32,262 nucleotides of DNA from a virus: UHGV virus genome UHGV-2051569. One strand, given 5' to 3'. The stretch's first letter is position 1; each line of letters opens with the position of its first letter. The translations under genes and the position numbers were made by a program. The notes beneath the pieces were generated by a model. It did not search any database. It was given only the letters and a program-made list of their open reading frames with translations, and had not been told where the DNA came from. Below are positions 5,685 through 32,262 of the stretch, piece by piece.

Positions 5685-6875
5685 TTAATTGCTGTTAACC
5701 GAGGTGACCAGATTTGCCAGGTATTTATCGGTAATACGCTGGCGCAGGGTCAGGTTTTCAAGAGGAGGCACCGGTGTATAGTCGTAGTCGATATACAGTT
5801 TTCCGGCCTTGAGGGTTTCCGCATCGTTGGATTCTTCGCTGAACCAGCAGGTCGCATCCACGATATAGCCGTTTGTTTTCAGCTCACGGAATTTGGCATT
5901 GATGCCGTCAACGATGTCGCGAATCAGCGTTGCAGTGATGGGCTTGTCCACCGCCCACATGTGCGCCTCAGCCATCGTGTCGGCCAGCACCTGCGCGGTG
6001 CGGGTGTAGTTTTCAAAGAGGAACAGCGTGTCATCAGAGCAGGTACGGTTACCCCAGAAGCGGAAACCGTCGCGGCGAATCAGCGTAGTGACGCCTGACT
6101 CGTTAAGCAGGTCAGCATCGGTGCCGGACTCCTGCAAATCCCAGAATACGGATGCGCTGATGCCGGTAACACCGTTTACCCCGACGTTGGACAGCGTTTT
6201 ATGCCAGCCCTGCTCCTGGTCGATTTTGGCACGCAGACCCAGCGCACGGGCGGTGGCATACGCGGTGGCGGTGGTACTGGTGACCGTATCCCATGCGAGG
6301 AAATCCGGCCAGATGACCATCAGCTCACGCTGGCTGAAATTCTGGCGGTAGGCTTTCACCTCGGAAATGGTTTTACAGCCCCATGCGCTGATATATCCGA
6401 AAGCGCGCAGCTTCTGACAGACTGATGCCAGTGCAACAGCCACCTCTTTGGTATCCAGCCCCGGCACACCAAGAATACGCGGTTTAACACCGGTTACCGA
6501 CTCCGCCGCCAGCAGGGCTTTCAGTCCGGTGTACTGACCGTTTTCGTCAGTGGTGCCGATGATATTGGAAACGGTCTGCGCGAGTTTCGTTTCCTCGTCG
6601 TCGCCGGTGCCGTCTTCCACACGCACGACAACGGTGACCGGTTTTGACTGGTCGGCGATGGCCTGTAACGATGCCGCCAGCGTGCCTTTTTTACCGGCCT
6701 TTGCAATTGCGCTCTGCACATTGGTAATCAGCACCGGTTTATTGAGGGGGAAGGTTTCCGCATCCGCATCGCTGGCCGTGCAGACCATGCCGACAATGGC
6801 AGTGGATACGGTGGAAATGACACGGGTGCCGTCGTTAATCTCCAGCACCTGCACGCCGTGATGATAGTCACTCAT
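5685..6875 (-). CDS. FI: Contractile tail sheath protein (P2 gpFI-like)
   Basis: 396-aa ORF starting MSDYHHGVQVLEINDGTRVI..., typical of myovirus sheath proteins. Confidence 0.9.
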   Translation of the reverse strand: MSDYHHGVQVLEINDGTRVISTVSTAIVGMVCTASDADAETFPLNKPVLITNVQSAIAKAGKKGTLAASLQAIADQSKPVTVVVRVEDGTGDDEETKLAQTVSNIIGTTDENGQYTGLKALLAAESVTGVKPRILGVPGLDTKEVAVALASVCQKLRAFGYISAWGCKTISEVKAYRQNFSQRELMVIWPDFLAWDTVTSTTATAYATARALGLRAKIDQEQGWHKTLSNVGVNGVTGISASVFWDLQESGTDADLLNESGVTTLIRRDGFRFWGNRTCSDDTLFLFENYTRTAQVLADTMAEAHMWAVDKPITATLIRDIVDGINAKFRELKTNGYIVDATCWFSEESNDAETLKAGKLYIDYDYTPVPPLENLTLRQRITDKYLANLVTSVNSN

Positions 6876-6934
6876 CCGTTTAACTCCGTGGTTAATGGGT
6901 GAGTGGTATTTTCAGTTGTGCCGGAGATGTCAGG

Positions 6935-7528
6935 CTATTTGTCCCGGTTGGTTAAGGGATGACACAATTTATTCTTTGTCGCTGATGAGGGGAATTTTTT
7001 ATAGAGCGTGGACAGGCCAATATCAAAAATCAGCGCCACACGTTGACGAGATTCCCCCGCAGCCAGCAACCGTCCGACCTGCTCCCACTCACTCGCGGTG
7101 AGTTTCGGACGTCTGCCACCAATACGACCTTTGGCTCTGGCCGCTTCCAGTCCGGCGCGTGTCCGCTCGACAATGAGTTCTCGCTCCATTTCAGCCAGGG
7201 CACCCATCACATGAAAGAAAAAACGCCCCATCGGCGTGCTGGTATCAATAGCATCCGTCAGACTGCGAAAATTAACGCCGCGTTCGCGCAGTTCCTCAAC
7301 CAGAATGACCAGATGCCGCATACTACGCCCCAGCCTGTCCAGCTTCCAGACTACCAGAGTGTCACCTGCTGATAATGTTCTGAGCAGTTTTTTCAGTCCC
7401 GGTCGGTCGGACTTCGTGCCGCTGATTTTATCCTCAAAAATCCGCTCGCATCCTGCGCACTCCAGCACGTTACGCTGCAATTCCGTGTTCTGGTCATTTG
7501 TTGACACGCGTACATAGCCAATAAGCAT
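6935..7528 (-). CDS. Serine-recombinase DNA invertase (Hin/Gin/Cin/Pin family)
   Basis: N-terminus MLIGYVRVSTNDQ...LVVWKLDRLGRS...FFFHVMGALAEMERELIVERT and a C-terminal HTH; near-collinear with Hin/Gin as recalled. Start moved to the internal ATG that has an AGGGGG RBS. Confidence 0.9.
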   Translation of the reverse strand: MLIGYVRVSTNDQNTELQRNVLECAGCERIFEDKISGTKSDRPGLKKLLRTLSAGDTLVVWKLDRLGRSMRHLVILVEELRERGVNFRSLTDAIDTSTPMGRFFFHVMGALAEMERELIVERTRAGLEAARAKGRIGGRRPKLTASEWEQVGRLLAAGESRQRVALIFDIGLSTLYKKFPSSATKNKLCHPLTNRDK

Positions 7529-7555
7529 GAGCATCCCCCTGAATAAAAACCGGAG

Positions 7556-8077
7556 ATGATGCCAGTTGCCCGTTATCTCTGCATTTTCATAAACGTTGGT
7601 TTGGGAGAAGGCTCTGCATTACCTGTTGGTGTGCCTGTTCCATGGCCTTCAGCCACACCGCCAACAGGCTGGCTGAAATGCAACGGTGCGGCTTTTTCTG
7701 CTGAAGAATACCCGGAACTGGCAAAGGCTTATCCGACAAATAAATTACCTGATTTACGCGGTGAGTTTATTCGTGGCTGGGATGACGGGCGCGGTATTGA
7801 TGCAGGACGTGTTTTATTGAGTATTCAGGCAGGAATGCTGGAAAAACACCGTCATATTGTTGTTGCCAATGATGGTTACGACACGAAAGATGAATGGGAA
7901 CTGGCTACGATTTTCAAAAAAACATACACACAAGGGCGAGGACTTGATGCCACAAATACAGGAGGGAGCCTAATCCCATCACCGACACTTCATTCACGAG
8001 GGAGTATCGGTAATACTGGCGGGAGTGAAACCCGTCCACGAAATATTGCATTTAACTTTATCGTGAGGGCTGCATAA
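7556..8077 (+). CDS. Alternative promoterless tail-fibre C-terminal domain, fused to H only after inversion
   Basis: The ORF crosses the left crossover site at codons ~10-18 (INVGLGEGS, compared with [10 protein letters not shown]); inversion would join the H constant region to GSALPVGVPVPWP... Confidence 0.65.
   Translation: MMPVARYLCIFINVGLGEGSALPVGVPVPWPSATPPTGWLKCNGAAFSAEEYPELAKAYPTNKLPDLRGEFIRGWDDGRGIDAGRVLLSIQAGMLEKHRHIVVANDGYDTKDEWELATIFKKTYTQGRGLDATNTGGSLIPSPTLHSRGSIGNTGGSETRPRNIAFNFIVRAA
7584..7609. repeat. Left crossover site (hix/gix-like)
   Basis: ttttcataaacgttggtttgggagaa; its reverse complement ttctcccaaaccaacgtttatgaaaa matches the right site and resembles hix (AAACCAAGGTTTTT core) as recalled. 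Confidence 0.7.
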
Positions 8078-8679
8078 TGGATAACGCCGTATTAAATAGC
8101 GAGCTTATTGCCACGAAGGCGGGGAATATTACCGTCTATAACTATGATGGTGAAACTCGGGAATATATTTCCACTTCAAATGAATATCTTGCCATTGGTG
8201 TCGGTATCCCGGCATATTCCTGTTTAGATGCTCCTGGTACACATAAGGCTGGTTATGCTATCTGCCGTTCGATGGATTTAAACTCATGGGAATATGTGCC
8301 AGACCATCGCGGTGAAATCGTCTATAACACCGAAACGGGAGATGCCAAAGAAATCACAGCACCGGGTGATTACCCCGAAAATACAACCACTATCGCCCCA
8401 TTAACGCCATACGATAAATGGGATGGTGAGAAATGGGTGACCGATACTGAGGCACAGCATAGCGCCGCAGTAGACGCGGCAGAAGCACAGCGTCAGTCAC
8501 TGATTGATACTGCAATGGCCTCCATCAGTCTGATTCAGCTGAAATTGCAGGCCGGGCGGAAGCTGACGCAGGCAGAAACCACCCGACTTAACGCTGTGCT
8601 GGATTACATTGACGCGGTGACGGCAACAGATACCAGCACCGCGCCGGATGTCATCTGGCCTGAACTGCCGGAGGCGTAG
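8077..8679 (+). CDS. Alternative tail-fibre assembly chaperone (inverted-orientation partner)
   Basis: 200-aa ORF whose C-terminus (...LDYIDAVTATDTSTAPDVIWPELPEA) parallels the minus-strand chaperone C-terminus (...LDYLDALELVDTSGAPDIEWPTPPA); the two genes converge and overlap at their 3' ends. Confidence 0.75.
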   Translation: MDNAVLNSELIATKAGNITVYNYDGETREYISTSNEYLAIGVGIPAYSCLDAPGTHKAGYAICRSMDLNSWEYVPDHRGEIVYNTETGDAKEITAPGDYPENTTTIAPLTPYDKWDGEKWVTDTEAQHSAAVDAAEAQRQSLIDTAMASISLIQLKLQAGRKLTQAETTRLNAVLDYIDAVTATDTSTAPDVIWPELPEA

Positions 8680-9091
8680 GCCATTCAATATCTGGCGCAC
8701 CGGAAGTATCGACCAGTTCCAGTGCGTCCAGGTAATCCAGCCACAAATTATATTGCGCCAGTTCGTCACCTTTCAGACGACCAATAGCCGCTTTACCAGG
8801 CCATTGTTTACTGTTCATATAATCGTTGGCCTGATTAATCAATTGCTGCTTCTCCAATTCGGCTGCAGCAATTTGTTCCTCATGTGTTGGTGGTGGAATT
8901 TCGGACCATGCAGGAAAACCATTTTCTCCAGCGATACGGATTTTTCCTTTCGGCGGTAATCCGGAAAACTCAATATACACTTGCTCATCAACTTCAACAG
9001 CATCATCTGGCCATGAGTCAGCTTGAGTGTAATCCTCTTTCATCTCCAGCGGATAGAAAGAGTTTGTAGTCGCGGAATATATGTAATTCAT
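8651..9091 (-). CDS. Tail-fibre assembly chaperone (gpG/U-like), currently expressed orientation
   Basis: 146-aa ORF directly downstream of H on the same strand, with the conserved C-terminal chaperone motif. Confidence 0.8.
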   Translation of the reverse strand: MNYIYSATTNSFYPLEMKEDYTQADSWPDDAVEVDEQVYIEFSGLPPKGKIRIAGENGFPAWSEIPPPTHEEQIAAAELEKQQLINQANDYMNSKQWPGKAAIGRLKGDELAQYNLWLDYLDALELVDTSGAPDIEWPTPPAVQAR

Positions 9092-9112
9092 TTTTCACTC
9101 CATATAGCTAAA

Positions 9113-10072
9113 TTAACAGCCTAACGCTAAAAATGAAGCGCCGAGGCCAGGAGTACTGGCTCTGGATATAAATTTAACCGGGTCGGGACTAAAACCTGCA
9201 CAGGCAATATAACCAACAGCCCCGCTATCTGGTGTGTAGTCTTGTGAGACCAAAACACGCAGACATCTGTTTGGAAATGCAATCGGGAAATGGGTTACTA
9301 CATCCTGTGCAATGCCTGGTGCGCCGATTGAGCCCCACTGAAGAATAAAACCTGATGGTAATTTTTGATATCCAGTACCTGAAACAGAAAGCGTGAAGCT
9401 ACCCATATCAGGTATCTGATTCGCCCCTGTCCCTACATTCCTTTTAGCCGCTTCTCCCAAACCAAGGTTTTTAAGAACGTCGCCGGCCAGTCCCGCGTCA
9501 ACCATTTCTTTCAGAGCATTAGCGATTAACGGGTACTGCTTGTGTGGATTGGCGGCCTCAACATGTTTTTTCATCAGGTCATCAGCATATCCTTTCACCT
9601 CGATAATCTTGTCGTCGACATACTGGCGCGTTGCCAGCACGACTGCCGGGTCGATTTTCAGGGTGATTGCCGATGTGCTCGACACAATCAGAATCATGCG
9701 AATGGTCTGCGTGCGACCGCTTCCCTCCTGCAGTTGTGGCTTGTAGGTCTCCGGACAGTTCGCCACGGCAATCAGAATACCATCATCGTCATAGAGACCA
9801 ATCTCGCGGATCCAGAAACCACCTTCATTCTCGGGAATAATCTGTTCCGCGATAATCTGACTGGTATTGGCCGGGTCAACGGTCAGCAGGTTCAGCGGCG
9901 CGATGCGTTTCTGGTTAATGAGCTTCGTCTGCGCCGGGTCAGGGGTCGGCAACGTACCATTCGCATCACCGACGGCCATCTGCGTCAGGTTGAGTTTGGT
10001 ACCGAGTGCCGCCGCGTTCGCCAGCCGCGCCGCGCCCTGATTGGTCAGAATGGCAAAATATTTTGCGGTCAT
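9113..10072 (-). CDS. H: Tail fibre protein (P2 gpH-like), constant N-terminus plus currently in-frame variable C-terminus
   Basis: N-terminal motifs shared with P2 H as recalled (MAVGD, IAVAN...YKP...EGSGR...IVSS...YVDDKI); the C-terminal ~110 aa lie inside the invertible segment. Confidence 0.85.
9452..9477. repeat. Right crossover site (hix/gix-like) inside the H coding sequence
   Basis: ttctcccaaaccaaggtttttaagaa; encodes ...LKNLGLGE at the junction between the constant and variable parts of H. Confidence 0.7.
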
Positions 10073-10677
10073 GCGTTCACTCTCAGATTATCAATCAAAT
10101 GGATGGCCGAGGCCGGGTAATATTCACCGCCGACGACAATCTCCTCGGGGGTGTAGGGGTAAACAGTCAGCGCGTCGCCGTGATAGCATCCCGCGCCGAC
10201 ATACAGTTCGCCGGTCGAGCTCAGACTGATAGCCAGCCCGGTCAGGTGGCGACTTGCCGGTTTGGCGTCTTCAATCAGGCGCTCAAGCTCCTGATACATT
10301 TCGTCAGTGATGCCGCTGTCGAGGACGCCAACAACGAGGCGGAATGTGCCTGGCTCCTCGTCGAGTTGCCACCACTCGCGCACCTCAATCAGAAAGCCGA
10401 GCGGCTCGACGACCCGACGCAATGCGCTGATGGTGCCTTTGTGCTGATGGACGAAAAACGAGGACGCGCAGACGCTGCGCTTTGTCGCCTCCGGCCATTT
10501 CTCATCCCACCTGTCGACCGACAGCGCCCACGCCAGATACGGCAGCAGCTTTACCGGGCAGGTGCGCCAGTTCCACAGGGTGCGCAGCGGTACCGGCACG
10601 TGCTGAATCTCAGAGAACGCAGCGGCGGCGGCGACCTCCAGCGGCGACGAGCCAACGGGTAATAGCCGGTCATTCAT
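10069..10677 (-). CDS. I: Baseplate/tail protein I (P2 gpI-like)
   Basis: 202-aa ORF between J and H with overlapping start/stop codons. Confidence 0.85.
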
Positions 10678-12564: not shown

Positions 12565-12701
12565 GAACAAAGAATGCCGATTGTTAAAGCCAAGAGCAAA
12601 ACGATTCAGCTGTATGCTCTTCTACACAATTCGGTGTGCATTCATGTATCATTTGAGTGTTGACTCATTCGAAAATCACACAAAACATATGGCAGGTAGT
12701 A

Positions 12702-13538
12702 ATGAAAAGAACTTCATCTTTTAGGCGTACAATAAGCAATATGAAATATATTATAGGTATCTTTTTTTTATACTCCGGGCTTATAGTAGGGTTGTCTGTT
12801 TATAATGATAACTACAACTCAAAATTCATGGAGAATTTTCTTGTTAATGCAAATTCTTCAATTTTAGATTTTCTTGTTTTGGGTGTGATTCTTTACTATT
12901 TTGAAAATAAAAGGCAAAATAAAGATGCTATTCACGAACTAATTGAAGATCTTGAAAATCTGGCAAAGCATTCTTCTGCAGAACTGAATATTATGAAGAT
13001 AAAAATCATACGTCAGTTAAATGCTAAAGGAATATATAACATTCAAGTTCCAAGGATTGAACTTGATAAAATGTCCACTATCAAATATTTACATTTTAAA
13101 GACGCTGACTTAACCGGCTTGAATATGAGCGAATCATACATTAGAGATTGTTCTTTCGATAATTGCACAATTCAAGCTCTAAATATTACAGGCAATAGAG
13201 TTAAGAGTGTTAAATTCAAAAACTGCAAGCTAAGAAATATTAAGGCATTTAATACATGTTTTCAAAATGTCACTTTCGAAAACTGCAGTTTTGAAGGGGG
13301 GTATTTTACAGATAGCGAAATGAAAAGCTGCATATTAAAAGGATGTGATTTTAAATCCGTTACTTATGAAGGGGCTAACATGCGGAATGCAAATCTATTA
13401 AATTCAATTAACATTAACGTTAAAGAACTTGTTAAAGCAAAAAACATAGATTATTTAATTTGTGATGAGCAAATTAAAAATGAAATAAGAAAGGAAAACC
13501 CAGCAATAAAAATATCGAGAGGAATAATACGAGGTTAG
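12702..13538 (+). CDS. Cargo (moron) gene: membrane-anchored pentapeptide-repeat protein, function unknown
   Basis: AT-rich ORF antisense to the flanking late genes. It has two N-terminal hydrophobic helices (YIIGIFFLYSGLIVGLSVY, ILDFLVLGVILYYF) and about 20 consecutive 5-residue repeats with a hydrophobic fifth position (KDADL TGLNM SESYI RDCSF DNCTI ...). Start chosen at MKRTSS with a weak AGGT RBS. Confidence 0.6.
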   Translation: MKRTSSFRRTISNMKYIIGIFFLYSGLIVGLSVYNDNYNSKFMENFLVNANSSILDFLVLGVILYYFENKRQNKDAIHELIEDLENLAKHSSAELNIMKIKIIRQLNAKGIYNIQVPRIELDKMSTIKYLHFKDADLTGLNMSESYIRDCSFDNCTIQALNITGNRVKSVKFKNCKLRNIKAFNTCFQNVTFENCSFEGGYFTDSEMKSCILKGCDFKSVTYEGANMRNANLLNSININVKELVKAKNIDYLICDEQIKNEIRKENPAIKISRGIIRG

Positions 13539-22464: not shown

Positions 22465-23469
22465 ATGGGCGCGGAGATTAATATTTTGGAAACTGATTTT
22501 AAAATAACCCTCGAAGGTTTCGCTACTGAGCAAGAAGCAAATAATATCGGTAATTTCACACTAGAAGCTATCCGAGCTTTAACAAAAAATCTCAATCTTG
22601 ATATCTCCAAATTAAAATGCGTGATTGTTTCCTATAACTTCAGTGAAGCTCTTCAAAAGGTAACATCCTCTTACCAACACAAATCCCCTAGTTCATTTAC
22701 CAATAGCAAACAGGGCGCAGCCGTCGGGCAGTTAGTAACAAAAATTGGCAATGATGGGCTATGTGAAGAATATACCCTTGTGCTATCGATTGATTTTTTT
22801 GTTGAGCTTTTCAATGATGGTAGCTTCTTAAAACTGAAAGAAGAAGGATACCTCGCAGTCATCCATCGCATTCACCATGAATTAGTGCACGTACATGAAA
22901 AAAACTTACTAACATGCTTAGCCCAAAACTTTACAGTCAACGAGTATGGTAGCGCGCTTCTTATCTCAGCCACGCGTGCGTGGTCTGAATATCTCGCTAA
23001 TTACATGTCTTCGGGGTCTGCCCCTCAAGAAACTATCGATTTATTTTTAGAGAATCTTGACACTGTTGTAAATGAAGTATCTGACGAGATTGAAAAACTC
23101 ATCTGGGGTTATAAGTACGGTAATATTTCTCTGAATGACATGTATCTCGAAGTAAAAAAACGTATCAGGCTAATCATCAACTCTTATGCTTATGCGATGG
23201 GTTATGTCCATTCTCTAAACATCAATATTAAAGAATACGATCCAAAGCTATCCCTTACACTATCCAACTCAAAGATAAGATATCAATTATCAGAATTAGG
23301 CATTGCTTTTCAGAATCTTTATGGGAAGTTTAATGACCAGCACATTACAGGTTTTGGTGATTTTCGGGAGATAACAATAATCATTGATGAAATATTCAAG
23401 CAGTTTGGGCTTGTTTTAGAGTGTCCCGATTGGTCTGGCGACGGTGAACTCTACATACATGTAAATTAG
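22465..23469 (+). CDS. Cargo gene between portal and cos: hypothetical protein with an HExxH motif (possible metallopeptidase-like)
   Basis: 334-aa AT-rich ORF containing ...AVIHRIHHELVHVHEKN...; no obvious RBS; located between the Q stop and the cos-like site. Confidence 0.55.
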   Translation: MGAEINILETDFKITLEGFATEQEANNIGNFTLEAIRALTKNLNLDISKLKCVIVSYNFSEALQKVTSSYQHKSPSSFTNSKQGAAVGQLVTKIGNDGLCEEYTLVLSIDFFVELFNDGSFLKLKEEGYLAVIHRIHHELVHVHEKNLLTCLAQNFTVNEYGSALLISATRAWSEYLANYMSSGSAPQETIDLFLENLDTVVNEVSDEIEKLIWGYKYGNISLNDMYLEVKKRIRLIINSYAYAMGYVHSLNINIKEYDPKLSLTLSNSKIRYQLSELGIAFQNLYGKFNDQHITGFGDFREITIIIDEIFKQFGLVLECPDWSGDGELYIHVN

Positions 23470-23688
23470 TTTAATCATAGTAGAAACATAATTAGCAGTT
23501 TGAATCCTGCCACTCCTGTAAAGCCGCTGCTCCTGGTGGCTTTTCCATGCACACCACCATCACGCATCAGATGCGTCTCACGCGCACGAACACACCCGAC
23601 CACCAACGAACCAGCAGCGACCACGACAGCGCCATCACGACGCGCTCAGAGGATAATTTTTATTATTACGCATCACTGCTGGCGCGCA

Positions 23689-23707
23689 ATGCTTTCCCCG
23701 CCACGCC
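23689..23707 (-). other. cos cohesive-end site
   Basis: Minus strand reads GGCGTGGCGGGGAAAGCAT, matching the 19-nt cohesive end of P2/186-type phages as recalled; GC-rich flanks with repeated GTGATG/GGTGG motifs. Confidence 0.7.
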
Positions 23708-23852
23708 TGCCCGCTTTATGGGTCGGTTTTAATGCAGTTGCATGACCTCGCTTTAGCTAAGCTACTACCGGTACTCCTTATGTTTTGGCGGTTGGATCAA
23801 CGCATGCAAAAAAATGCAGTGGCATGCACACATTCATTACATCTTATTTATC

Positions 23853-24569
23853 TTATCGAACCCTTTTTTCCAGATTGAGTAGGGCTTTTTTGCATTTTTT
23901 TTGATTAATAAACGTTCTATCCAGTATCTTTATATGAAACATCATTACTCTATTGAAGCAAATAAACATTTCTCGGGCATCCTGGCCAACAATCAGAAAC
24001 GACTCGCCATTAATATTTGGAATGTTGCTATTCTTCGATAAATCATCAAATGCCTCAGAGCCACGTTCATTTCTATACATTTCTTTAATAGCCATTACTT
24101 CATCGTGGCGAACGATATTAATCCAAATTAATTTATCTACAGTCAACAATTGCCCATACTCTAAGAAAAATACTCCCTTGGCTAACCAGGTGCCGTATTG
24201 GTAAATCTCCCTACCATTTAGGGGTAATGTTATCTGCGCACCTTTTTTTGTATGCCTAACACTCTGGAATGCTTCACGAAATTTCGAGTCTTTTCTTTTA
24301 AGCGCATTATGGAATTTATTAACAGCATCAAAGCTGCCTGTTGAGTGCTCTCCTACCATGCGGCAAATGACACCTAACACCTCGTCAATTCGGCTTTTAT
24401 CGCCATTGCACTTTTTGCATACATAGAAATCACCTTCGCCGTTGGTTCTATGAATGGAGACTGAAACTTGCGGAATCATGTGTTCAACTGAGCGGCAGTG
24501 GGGGTGATTTTCAACCTTATTCATGAGAACACCGCAATAAACGCAGTGTGTGCTTGGTTTCATATACAT
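23853..24569 (-). CDS. Cargo gene: HNH (His-Me finger) nuclease-domain protein with an uncharacterised C-terminal domain
   Basis: N-terminal CVYCG ... VEHMIPQ ... N ... CKKCNGDKS fits the Cys4 plus catalytic His/Asn HNH pattern; AT-rich; start uncertain (24644, 24569 or 24563; a weak AAGGG RBS precedes the inner ATGs). Confidence 0.6.
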   Translation of the reverse strand: MYMKPSTHCVYCGVLMNKVENHPHCRSVEHMIPQVSVSIHRTNGEGDFYVCKKCNGDKSRIDEVLGVICRMVGEHSTGSFDAVNKFHNALKRKDSKFREAFQSVRHTKKGAQITLPLNGREIYQYGTWLAKGVFFLEYGQLLTVDKLIWINIVRHDEVMAIKEMYRNERGSEAFDDLSKNSNIPNINGESFLIVGQDAREMFICFNRVMMFHIKILDRTFINQKKCKKALLNLEKRVR

Positions 24570-24665
24570 TGCCCTTACAATGTCTAATGACGAATGAGTA
24601 GCACTAAAATAACACAAATCTGATGGTGGGATGTCAGCCCCCATGCTTTAGATTGGACATACGAA

Positions 24666-31212: not shown

Positions 31213-32262
31213 ATGACTGTAAGTAAACAAAAAAGTGGAAAATGGTTGTGTGAACTCTATCCAAATGGTCGAGAAGGGCGGCGTATACGTCGGCAGTTCA
31301 ATACCAAAGGTGAGGCCGAGGCATTTGAAGCATTTACCAAAAGCGAGAGTGAAGATAAGCCGTGGCTCGGCAAGAAAGAAGACCGCCGACGCTTAAGCGA
31401 GATTATTCAGCTTTGGCACAATTTGCACGGTCAAGCGTTAGTCGCCAGTAAGTCGAGGTTTGCAAAGCTTCAAATCGTATGTAATGGACTTGGCGACCCG
31501 ATTGCATCTCGCCTTACCGCGAAAGACTGGGCTCATTATCGTGACCGTCGATTACGTGGTGAAATAGACAATGGTTATCATAAAGACCCCTCGAAATGGA
31601 TCGCCAAACCTATAACCGTCAATCGCGAACAACAATACCTAGAAGCAGTGTTTAATGAGCTCCGCCGGTTAGGGGAGTGGAGCCTACCCAATCCACTTGA
31701 TGGGATCCGAGTATTCAAAGAAGCTGAGAAAGAAATGTCCTGGCTAACTTTGTCTCAGCTCCCGGAGCTGTTTCGAGCCTGCGAGCAATACGGCAAAGAA
31801 GACCTCACCATGATTGTTAAGGTGTGCCTTGCAACCGGCGCTCGATGGGGGGAAGCAGAGAGATTGACCCGACCTCAACTTTCTCCATATAAACTAACGT
31901 TCACCAAAACCAAAGGTAAGAAGAATCGCACAGTTCCTATTCCTAAATGGCTGTACGACGAGTTGTCCGTACGTCAAGGCAGAATGTTTAAACCCTGCTA
32001 TCAGGAGTTTAAAAAGATGCTCAAACTAACGAATATTGAATTGACGGAAGGGCAGAAGACGCACGTTTTGCGTCATACTTTTGGTGCGCATTTTATGATG
32101 AACGGAGGGAATATACTGGTGCTGCAGAAAATTCTCGGACATGCCAATATTCGAGAAACAATGAAGTATGCGCACTTTGCTCCTGACCACCTTGAACAAG
32201 CTGTAACCCTCAATCCGTTATCGCTGTATGTTGGCGACAATGTGGCGGCAGAGGTTGCATAA
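31213..32262 (+). CDS. int: Tyrosine integrase (P2/186 family)
   Basis: 349-aa ORF with the C-terminal R...HxxR...Y catalytic region (HVLRHTFGAHFMMNGGNILVLQKILGHANIRETMKYAHF); its stop is at the window end. Confidence 0.9.
   Translation: MTVSKQKSGKWLCELYPNGREGRRIRRQFNTKGEAEAFEAFTKSESEDKPWLGKKEDRRRLSEIIQLWHNLHGQALVASKSRFAKLQIVCNGLGDPIASRLTAKDWAHYRDRRLRGEIDNGYHKDPSKWIAKPITVNREQQYLEAVFNELRRLGEWSLPNPLDGIRVFKEAEKEMSWLTLSQLPELFRACEQYGKEDLTMIVKVCLATGARWGEAERLTRPQLSPYKLTFTKTKGKKNRTVPIPKWLYDELSVRQGRMFKPCYQEFKKMLKLTNIELTEGQKTHVLRHTFGAHFMMNGGNILVLQKILGHANIRETMKYAHFAPDHLEQAVTLNPLSLYVGDNVAAEVA

Follow-up and report, generated by a model that had tools for sequence, protein, structure and literature searches.

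The locus described here raises the question of whether a phage of the P2 family carries a DNA switch that exchanges the receptor-binding end of its tail fibre. The window, by which we mean the whole stretch of 32,262 nucleotides that was analysed (UHGV virus genome UHGV-2051569), shows the P2 gene order (Ogr, D, U, T, E, FII, FI ... H, I, J, W, V ... P, Q, A, int), with matches to Tail_P2_I, Phage_GPA, Ogr_Delta, sheath and integrase families, and it belongs to the P2-like phages (Peduoviridae), 73% of 24 kb aligning with the peduovirus vB_EcoM-613R3 at 96% identity and with a P2 strain at 86%. The host element is apparently a complete P2-type myovirus with ogr present. The invertase gene had been proposed in a preliminary description of this DNA to occupy the slot of the P2 gene Z/fun, and it does so, with the tail-fibre module on one side and the sheath gene FI on the other, fun(Z) of P2 itself sitting between G and FI; the pF region is near-identical to the P2 pF activator site, up to the start of FI. 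As argued below, the whole module (Table 1) is very probably a switch of phage host range that works by site-specific inversion of the Gin/Pin/Cin type.

Table 1. Features of the inversion module and its surroundings (positions refer to the window)
Feature	Position	Strand	Remarks
P2 late promoter pF region	6876..6990	-	Upstream of sheath gene FI; covers last ~16 invertase codons
Serine DNA invertase	6935..7528	-	197 aa; Resolvase + HTH_7 domains
Putative recombinational (Fis) enhancer homologue	7439..7510	-	nt 19-90 of invertase gene
Left 26-bp crossover site	7584..7609		Core TT at 7596-7597; adjoins invertase
Silent alternative fibre C-terminus, StfE-like	7610..8077	+	Collar E 1.2e-15; called ORF begins 7556
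Alternative-tip chaperone, TfaE-like	8077..8679	+	200 aa; Caudo_TAP E 1.4e-32
Chaperone of currently expressed tip	8651..9091	-	146 aa; Caudo_TAP E 1.5e-37; directly downstream of H, same strand
Variable C-terminus currently fused to H	9113..9451	-	Gp53-like_C E 3e-14, H residues 237-319
Right 26-bp crossover site	9452..9477		Core AA at 9464-9465; inside H
Constant N-terminal part of tail-fibre gene H	9478..10072	-	Phage_tail_fib E 9.5e-63; ~198 aa before site

The invertase, a serine recombinase of small size, has its catalytic domain at the N-terminus (PF00239 Resolvase, E 8e-52) and an HTH at the C-terminus (PF02796 HTH_7, E 5.5e-13), and its earlier assignment to the Hin/Gin type is upheld by identities of 78% to Mu Gin (structures 3UJ3/4M6F) and 86% to PinE of Escherichia coli K-12. 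The ORF was called as 6935-7534(-), and an in-frame upstream ATG at 7534 would make a protein of 199 aa; based on the alignment with Gin and the annotation of relatives, the Met at 7528 is the real start. Residue-by-residue alignment to both Gin structures and to gamma-delta resolvase was used to judge the catalytic residues. The motifs YVRVS(9)T and LDRLGR are conserved, with the catalytic Ser9 (Gin numbering) and the conserved Arg and Asp in YVRVST and KLDRLGRS; the ORF is full length and both catalytic and DNA-binding motifs are intact. In the motif ALAEMERE the protein keeps the wild-type Met at a position where both crystallised Gin chains show Val, which is an activating, Fis-independent change. 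It has been reported that Q151, R154 and L155 of Hin are the invertase residues that contact Fis (PMC3798978), and the equivalent residues are present here as Q-x-x-R-L in SEWEQVGRLL. By a simple scan, no sigma-70-like promoter was found for the invertase gene, match counts being not above those of shuffles.

A search for a Fis-binding enhancer inside the invertase gene, as the preliminary description had advised, gave a divided answer. In the P1 record nt 19-90 of cin are annotated as the enhancer, and the homologous stretch of the window is identical at 55 of its 72 positions, with a distal Fis-like core, GCGCAGGATGCGAGC, that is conserved in P1, Mu and an e14-like prophage. Under a simple rule for Fis sites (G-N13-C, with YR at -4/-3 and +3/+4) the distal core is clear but the proximal core is poor, and the enhancer is therefore assigned from homology to the P1 annotation; its conservation is inseparable from the coding constraint on the invertase gene. 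Fis may bind this stretch, and the switch may depend on Fis and the enhancer.

Between the invertase and the constant part of H lies the segment that would be inverted. Its two 26-bp sites are inverted relative to each other and imperfectly palindromic, with an identical 2-bp core and half-sites arranged 12-2-12, as in the Hin/Gin family; read as its reverse complement, the left site is TTCTCCCAAACC-AA-CGTTTATGAAAA and the right site is TTCTCCCAAACC-AA-GGTTTTTAAGAA. They agree, as first stated, at 22 of the 26 positions, the AA/TT core being the same in both, and the segment of about 1.9 kb proposed at that time measures 1,868 bp from site centre to site centre. The inverted-repeat arms run over 7584-7610 and 9451-9477 and are separated by 1,840 nt. 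A consensus search of the 32 kb returned only these two sites, with 0 expected from 100 shuffles, and a whole-window scan of 26-mers scored them at 23 and 22/26, followed by the next best at 19/26. This next-best 26-mer, at position 31900 in the integrase gene, is not palindromic and was rejected as a site; a third crossover site such as that of the EPEC shufflon was not found in the whole-window scan. The crossover points were placed correctly from the outset, the right one within H at ...LKNLGLGE and the left one within the ORF at 7556-8077 at ...FINVGLGEGS.

The segment holds the two convergent sets of fibre tip and chaperone that had been recognized in it, a Collar tip with a 200-aa Caudo_TAP protein on the plus strand and a gp53-like tip with a 146-aa Caudo_TAP protein on the minus strand, and the variable tips are 114 and 157 aa long. 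The alternative C-terminus comes without the baseplate-binding N-terminal domain; it is 62% identical to K-12 StfE, the first 90 aa being nearly identical, and a near-identical copy of the chaperone gene beside it is named tfaE in RefSeq records. The description of this alternative C-terminus as promoterless agrees with a simple upstream scan, in which no sigma-70-like site was seen and match counts did not exceed those of shuffles. The fibre protein is indeed compact, with 319 aa compared with 669 aa for P2 H. The 319-aa H recurs in 56 public contigs and phage vB_EcoM-613R3 carries a closely similar short H gene, which rules out an artefact; a simple deletion was also rejected, as the alignment instead shows a divergent, shorter linker.

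Would inversion then exchange tip and chaperone, as predicted? When the flip was modelled in silico as a crossover at the core dinucleotide, the frame of H was kept and the protein changed from 319 to 362 aa, so that, as in the invertible fibre segments Mu G, P1 C, e14 P and p15B, the site in the fibre ORF marks the point where a constant N-terminus meets either of two C-termini, in frame both ways. Further evidence comes from relatives, and many P2-like prophages of this architecture are present in RefSeq E. coli genomes. Across 9,618 bp, the prophages of E. coli GPEC1210 and GPEC1209 differ only in that the 1,840 bp between the repeats are exactly inverted, and flipping this part back leaves 0 mismatches. 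Their module is 98.1% identical to positions 6800-9468 of the window, without gaps, and the left breakpoint is a sequence identical to the left site of the window. The right site is identical to the breakpoint of two further inversions (L009/L016 and L011/L017); once flipped, L009 matches L016 over 8,960 bp without a mismatch. Near-identical modules are found in both orientations, and at a match coverage of at least 80%, 18 complete E. coli genomes have it as in the window and 26 have it flipped. Public proteins carry the exact H constant part of the window joined, precisely at the site, to three other C-termini, and predicted flipped H proteins of relatives are encoded unchanged in 9, 11 and 9 public contigs. 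Inversion of the segment is seen in 98%-identical relatives and with identical left and right sites, and this exact copy of invertase and segment is probably active as well.

According to the mechanism that we propose, invertase dimers would bind both 26-bp sites and, assisted by host Fis on the enhancer within the 5' end of the invertase gene, would cut both at the central AA/TT dinucleotide; one pair of half-sites would be turned by 180 degrees and religated, leaving the 1,868-bp segment inverted. The late operon V-W-J-I-H would be transcribed from the constant part of H into the segment, and therefore only the tip/chaperone pair facing that way would be made. In the orientation as sequenced this would be the 319-aa H with the gp53-like tip and the 146-aa chaperone, and after inversion the 362-aa H with the Collar/StfE-like tip and the 200-aa TfaE-like chaperone. 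Lysogens as a population would then produce virions of two types that differ in receptor specificity, and inversion would in this way change the host range.

It could be argued that the repeats merely reflect a conserved coding motif (GLGE) of mosaic fibre genes that are rearranged by general homologous recombination, as they do fall within coding sequence, where they specify similar peptides, and fibre genes are highly mosaic. However, Hin/Gin-type 12-2-12 half-sites next to a cognate invertase, and the breakpoints of three independent pairs of relatives falling exactly on the sites, are difficult to reconcile with this explanation, and an identical stretch of 13 bp offers too little homology for RecA to recombine efficiently; we consider it exceedingly improbable. 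The possibility that the parts are present but that this copy no longer inverts itself, through A21V, the other three of the four residues by which its invertase differs from that of the GPEC1210/1209 prophage, or an unexpressed gene for example, seems unlikely to us. A21V was found in the window alone among the aligned invertases, the residue being Ala in Gin, Pin and the GPEC invertase; the predicted 362-aa flipped H of this exact element was absent, by exact look-up, from a public collection of 15 billion proteins; and relatives with the 319-aa H commonly carry an invertase pseudogene, so that decay of the module is frequent. Against this stand the intact reading frame and motifs of the enzyme, and sites identical to those that have recombined in relatives. 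The missing flipped form is weak evidence, since the exact invertase occurs in only 4 metagenome contigs, and one of these contigs ends within the segment and is hence uninformative on orientation. Even a locked copy could be flipped in trans by other resident Pin-type invertases.

It has been reported that PinQ-mediated inversion of the e14 P segment gives StfE2, which blocks the adsorption of T2 (PMC12529663). Since the alternative cassette is an StfE homologue, so close over its first 90 aa, inversion might serve as a defence of the lysogen, in which an StfE-type chimera blocks adsorption of other phages, beside or instead of changing host range. The fusion partner here, however, is H of an apparently complete P2-type late operon. 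The P2 late operon needs Ogr and is silent in lysogens, and a role in lysogen defence seems very unlikely to us.

Compared with known systems, the module is a cassette of the e14 P-segment/pin type set in a P2 backbone. The P segment of e14 (stfP-tfaP / tfaE-stfE / pinE) has the same layout of fibre gene, site, two convergent tip-plus-chaperone sets, site and invertase, and positions 7068-9471 of the window have a counterpart of about 95% DNA identity in an e14-like prophage (strain WP4-S18-ESBL-09), which takes in the segment and most of the invertase gene, pinE. Whereas e14 is a defective cryptic prophage of K-12, the window holds a complete P2-type myovirus, as far as its gene content indicates, and the constant part is P2 H with a Phage_tail_fib domain, unlike in e14; the currently expressed tip is only 27% identical to K-12 StfP, and the invertase has a C-terminal tail 13 aa longer than that of e14 PinE, reaching into the P2 pF promoter. 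The Mu G/Gin and P1 C/Cin systems share mechanism and family with the switch described here, and their constant S N-terminus is similarly joined to alternative Sv/U and Sv'/U' sets; P1 in addition has its enhancer in the 5' end of the invertase gene, like the homologous stretch here. Their segments are larger, about 3 kb in Mu and 4.2 kb in P1 compared with about 1.9 kb, their variable parts are longer than the tips of the window, and the phage backbone is different. The e14 P segment, at 1,797 bp (PMC12529663), comes close to the 1,868 bp found here.

Closest in setting are other P2-like prophages (EPEC E2348/69, pro483, GPEC1210), where, as in the window, an invertase gene separates the fibre module from FI on a P2 backbone. 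Over 57% of the region, Escherichia phage pro483, which has an annotated DNA invertase, is 91.5% identical to the window. Up to GLGE, the constant part of H spans 205 aa in the window and 278 aa in GPEC1210, a difference of 73 aa. One of the EPEC prophages combines three sites with four variants, compared with two sites and two variants here. Phase variation by inversion has been shown experimentally in two P2-like prophages and e14 (Goldberg 2014, PMC4272514), and cultures with P2-like prophages of this kind contain the two orientations side by side (PMC4272514). In Salmonella, the Fels-2 prophage, also of the P2 family, carries Fin, a Hin-family invertase that can act in trans on another invertible segment (PMC4122451), and by description it resembles the window in combining such an invertase with a P2-family prophage. 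Hin itself governs a promoter, whereas the invertase of the window governs a fibre-gene fusion.

The switch is real and of textbook type, and as its mechanism, its family and its occurrence in P2-like prophages are all established, it poses no new biological question. For annotation it means that the ORF 7556-8077, a 'phage tail protein', is a silent cassette and no separate gene, and assemblers may break contigs or choose an arbitrary orientation at the segment. In relatives with the 319-aa H, both crossover sites are kept while the invertase gene is only a pseudogene stub that still contains the enhancer region, and yet both orientations are found among these prophages, which otherwise differ by 0-1 mismatches over 9 kb; therefore an intact copy, such as that of the window or e14 Pin, could set the host range of several resident prophages at once. 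We tentatively suggest that the invertase might be a shared trans-acting resource in this lineage, with a defence role of the StfE-like fusion at the level of the lysogen as a further possibility. If this were true, selection might preserve the invertase stub as a cis enhancer. For the phage itself, the switch would explain why a single prophage can give rise to virions of two receptor specificities, which matters for the prediction of host range.

The preliminary description of this DNA, made from the sequence alone, had proposed that a Hin/Gin-type invertase switches the tail fibre of the P2-like prophage by inverting a DNA segment. Its factual statements all hold, the peptide contexts LKNLGLGE and INVGLGEGS among them, and its interpretation is supported by the crossover sites, an intact invertase, a preserved reading frame and the occurrence of both orientations in relatives. 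A repeat finder placed the inverted-repeat arms at 7584-7610 and 9451-9477, 1,840 nt apart. The 26-mer sites, TTCTCCCAAACC-AA-CGTTTATGAAAA and TTCTCCCAAACC-AA-GGTTTTTAAGAA, are identical at 22/26 positions, both are built as 12-2-12 half-sites like the sites of the Hin/Gin family, and they have the core dinucleotide in common (7596-7597 and 9464-9465). A consensus search of the 32 kb allowing up to three mismatches returned these two sites only, with 0 matches in 100 shuffles, and a full 26-mer scan of the window found no third crossover site. A 19/26 match to the consensus at 31900-31925, inside the integrase gene, lacks palindromic symmetry and most likely arose by chance. A weak hairpin that resembles a terminator and has a T-run after it lies between the left site and the invertase start codon (7548-7567, minus strand). 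It might keep transcripts of the fibre operon from running on into the invertase gene; matches of this kind are not clearly more numerous in the region than in shuffles.

Genes in and around the invertible module
Feature	Coordinates	Strand	Basis
Sheath FI	5685-6875	-	ORF listing and domain scans
Serine recombinase ORF as called	6935-7534	-	ORF listing and domain scans
Collar-domain ORF	7556-8077	+	ORF listing and domain scans
Caudo_TAP chaperone, 200 aa	8077-8679	+	ORF listing and domain scans
Caudo_TAP chaperone, 146 aa	8651-9091	-	ORF listing and domain scans
Tail fibre H, 319 aa; P2-type Phage_tail_fib N-terminal domain and gp53-like C-terminal domain	9113-10072	-	Domain scans
P2 gene I	10069-10677	-	ORF listing and domain scans

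When the segment is flipped in silico at the core dinucleotides, the H reading frame is preserved, and the 319 aa protein with its gp53-like tip is replaced by a 362 aa protein carrying a Collar/StfE-like tip, behind which a TfaE-like chaperone is placed. Both arrangements occur in public genomes: a 3.4 kb query in the window orientation was covered to at least 80% in 18 complete Escherichia coli genomes and the flipped query in 26. GPEC1210 and GPEC1209, both isolated from chicken, share one prophage inserted between pflB and pflA, and over 9,618 bp their sole difference is a stretch of 1,840 bp that matches perfectly once reverse-complemented. The left site of this prophage is identical to that of the window, its module shows 98.1% identity without gaps to window 6800-9468, and four residues distinguish its invertase from that of the window (A21V, G145A, A151V and A193T). 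The exact 319-aa H was found in 56 public contigs; flipped H proteins predicted for five representatives gave three distinct sequences, all of which (3/3) are present verbatim in public E. coli proteins (9, 11 and 9 contigs). Among public loci with this H, L016 is L009 with the segment flipped (0 mismatches across 8,960 bp) and L017 is L011 flipped (1 mismatch). Judged from the sequences of these recombined relatives, the constant part of the window's H and its right site can be regarded as proven substrates. In E. coli MS 198-1 the chromosome has the module in the window orientation and a separate record of 66.8 kb has it flipped (NZ_CP146687.1, NZ_CP146689.1), and in CH4804 (NZ_CM166344.1) both orientations were matched at two different places; these double matches could represent two prophage copies or within-culture heterogeneity caught by assembly.

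We consider it very probable that the window copy is an active switch; the main alternative, that this copy is locked or decaying, appears improbable. The predicted flipped 362-aa H of the exact window element was absent from public protein records in an exact look-up, and the exact window invertase is present in only four contigs, from human-gut metagenome. In the alignment to Mu Gin (3UJ3, 4M6F; E 1e-93, approximately 78% identity) the recombinase retains both the LDRLGR motif and, within YVRVST, the nucleophilic Ser, and K-12 PinE shows 86% identity to it. Since the Gin alignment begins at the third codon of the recombinase, the true start is placed at the Met codon of 7528, for a length of 197 aa, with which the relatives' annotation agrees. 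The residues through which Hin contacts Fis, Q151, R154 and L155 (PMC3798978), are matched as Q-x-x-R-L. The preliminary description suggested a search for a Fis-binding enhancer inside the invertase gene. The Cin enhancer, annotated at nt 19-90 of cin in the P1 record, has a homologue at 7439-7510 (55/72 identical, a comparison confounded by coding constraint), and sequence comparison shows the Fis-like core GCGCAGGATGCGAGC to be kept in P1, Mu and an e14-like prophage. By homology alone this region is a putative enhancer, with Fis binding predicted only.

The window holds a complete P2-type prophage, from ogr to int. Over its first 24 kb, 73% aligned to the peduovirus vB_EcoM-613R3 at 96% identity, and a P2 strain showed approximately 86% identity. 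The invertase occupies the fun(Z) slot of P2, between G and FI, and the segment together with most of the invertase gene shows approximately 95% DNA identity to the P-segment/pinE of an e14-like prophage. Taken together, this is a P2 backbone that carries a cassette of the e14/Pin type. The alternative tip is a StfE homologue, and the tip now expressed has only distant kinship to K-12 StfP. At its 3' end the invertase gene shares about 16 codons with the conserved P2 promoter pF and its activator site, which lie upstream of FI (window 6876-6990). This overlap accounts for the 13 aa by which the protein exceeds Pin in length, and it marks the place where module and P2 backbone were joined. P2 H has 669 aa. 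The short H of the window reflects a shorter and divergent linker that connects the baseplate-binding domain to the crossover site (205 aa, versus 278 aa in GPEC1210), and this H recurs across many isolates, with a closely similar gene in vB_EcoM-613R3.

An accessory gene at 12657-13538 (plus strand) encodes a pentapeptide-repeat protein of 293 aa whose N-terminus is weakly similar to SLATT-type models (PADLOC). It is flanked by V (baseplate) and S (tail), both on the opposite strand, and is shared with vB_EcoM-613R3 ('YjcF') and L007. At 22465-24644, with the portal gene on one side and replication gene A on the other, lie two ORFs of 334 aa (plus strand) and 263 aa (minus strand), neither with a Pfam match, the latter with weak PtuB-like PADLOC matches (E about 1e-4). 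These are possible defence cargo, because in P2 the variable old/tin cargo slot has this position.

The window invertase belongs to the Fis-dependent DNA invertases and has an invertible tail-fibre segment under its control, the same kind of switch as Mu G/Gin, P1 C/Cin and e14 P/Pin. The switch was correctly identified but already known, since inversion phase variation has been demonstrated by sequencing and PCR for e14 and two P2-like prophages of EPEC E2348/69 (PMC4272514), phage pro483 has an annotated invertase at the same place, and the Fels-2 invertase Fin has been described, acting in trans on the Salmonella H segment (PMC4122451). Relatives that have exactly this 319-aa H (L007-L011, L016-L017) carry, at the equivalent of window 6935-7610, an invertase pseudogene that is cut short by a stop after 44 codons and has lost an internal part; the enhancer region is kept in it, as are both crossover sites. 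These prophages are nevertheless seen in both orientations at 0-1 mismatches, which suggests that a different Pin-type invertase resident in the cell flips them in trans; such action has been described for PinQ on e14 (PMC12529663). Concerning the relatives and not the window, such flipping in trans would be the sole mildly new angle.
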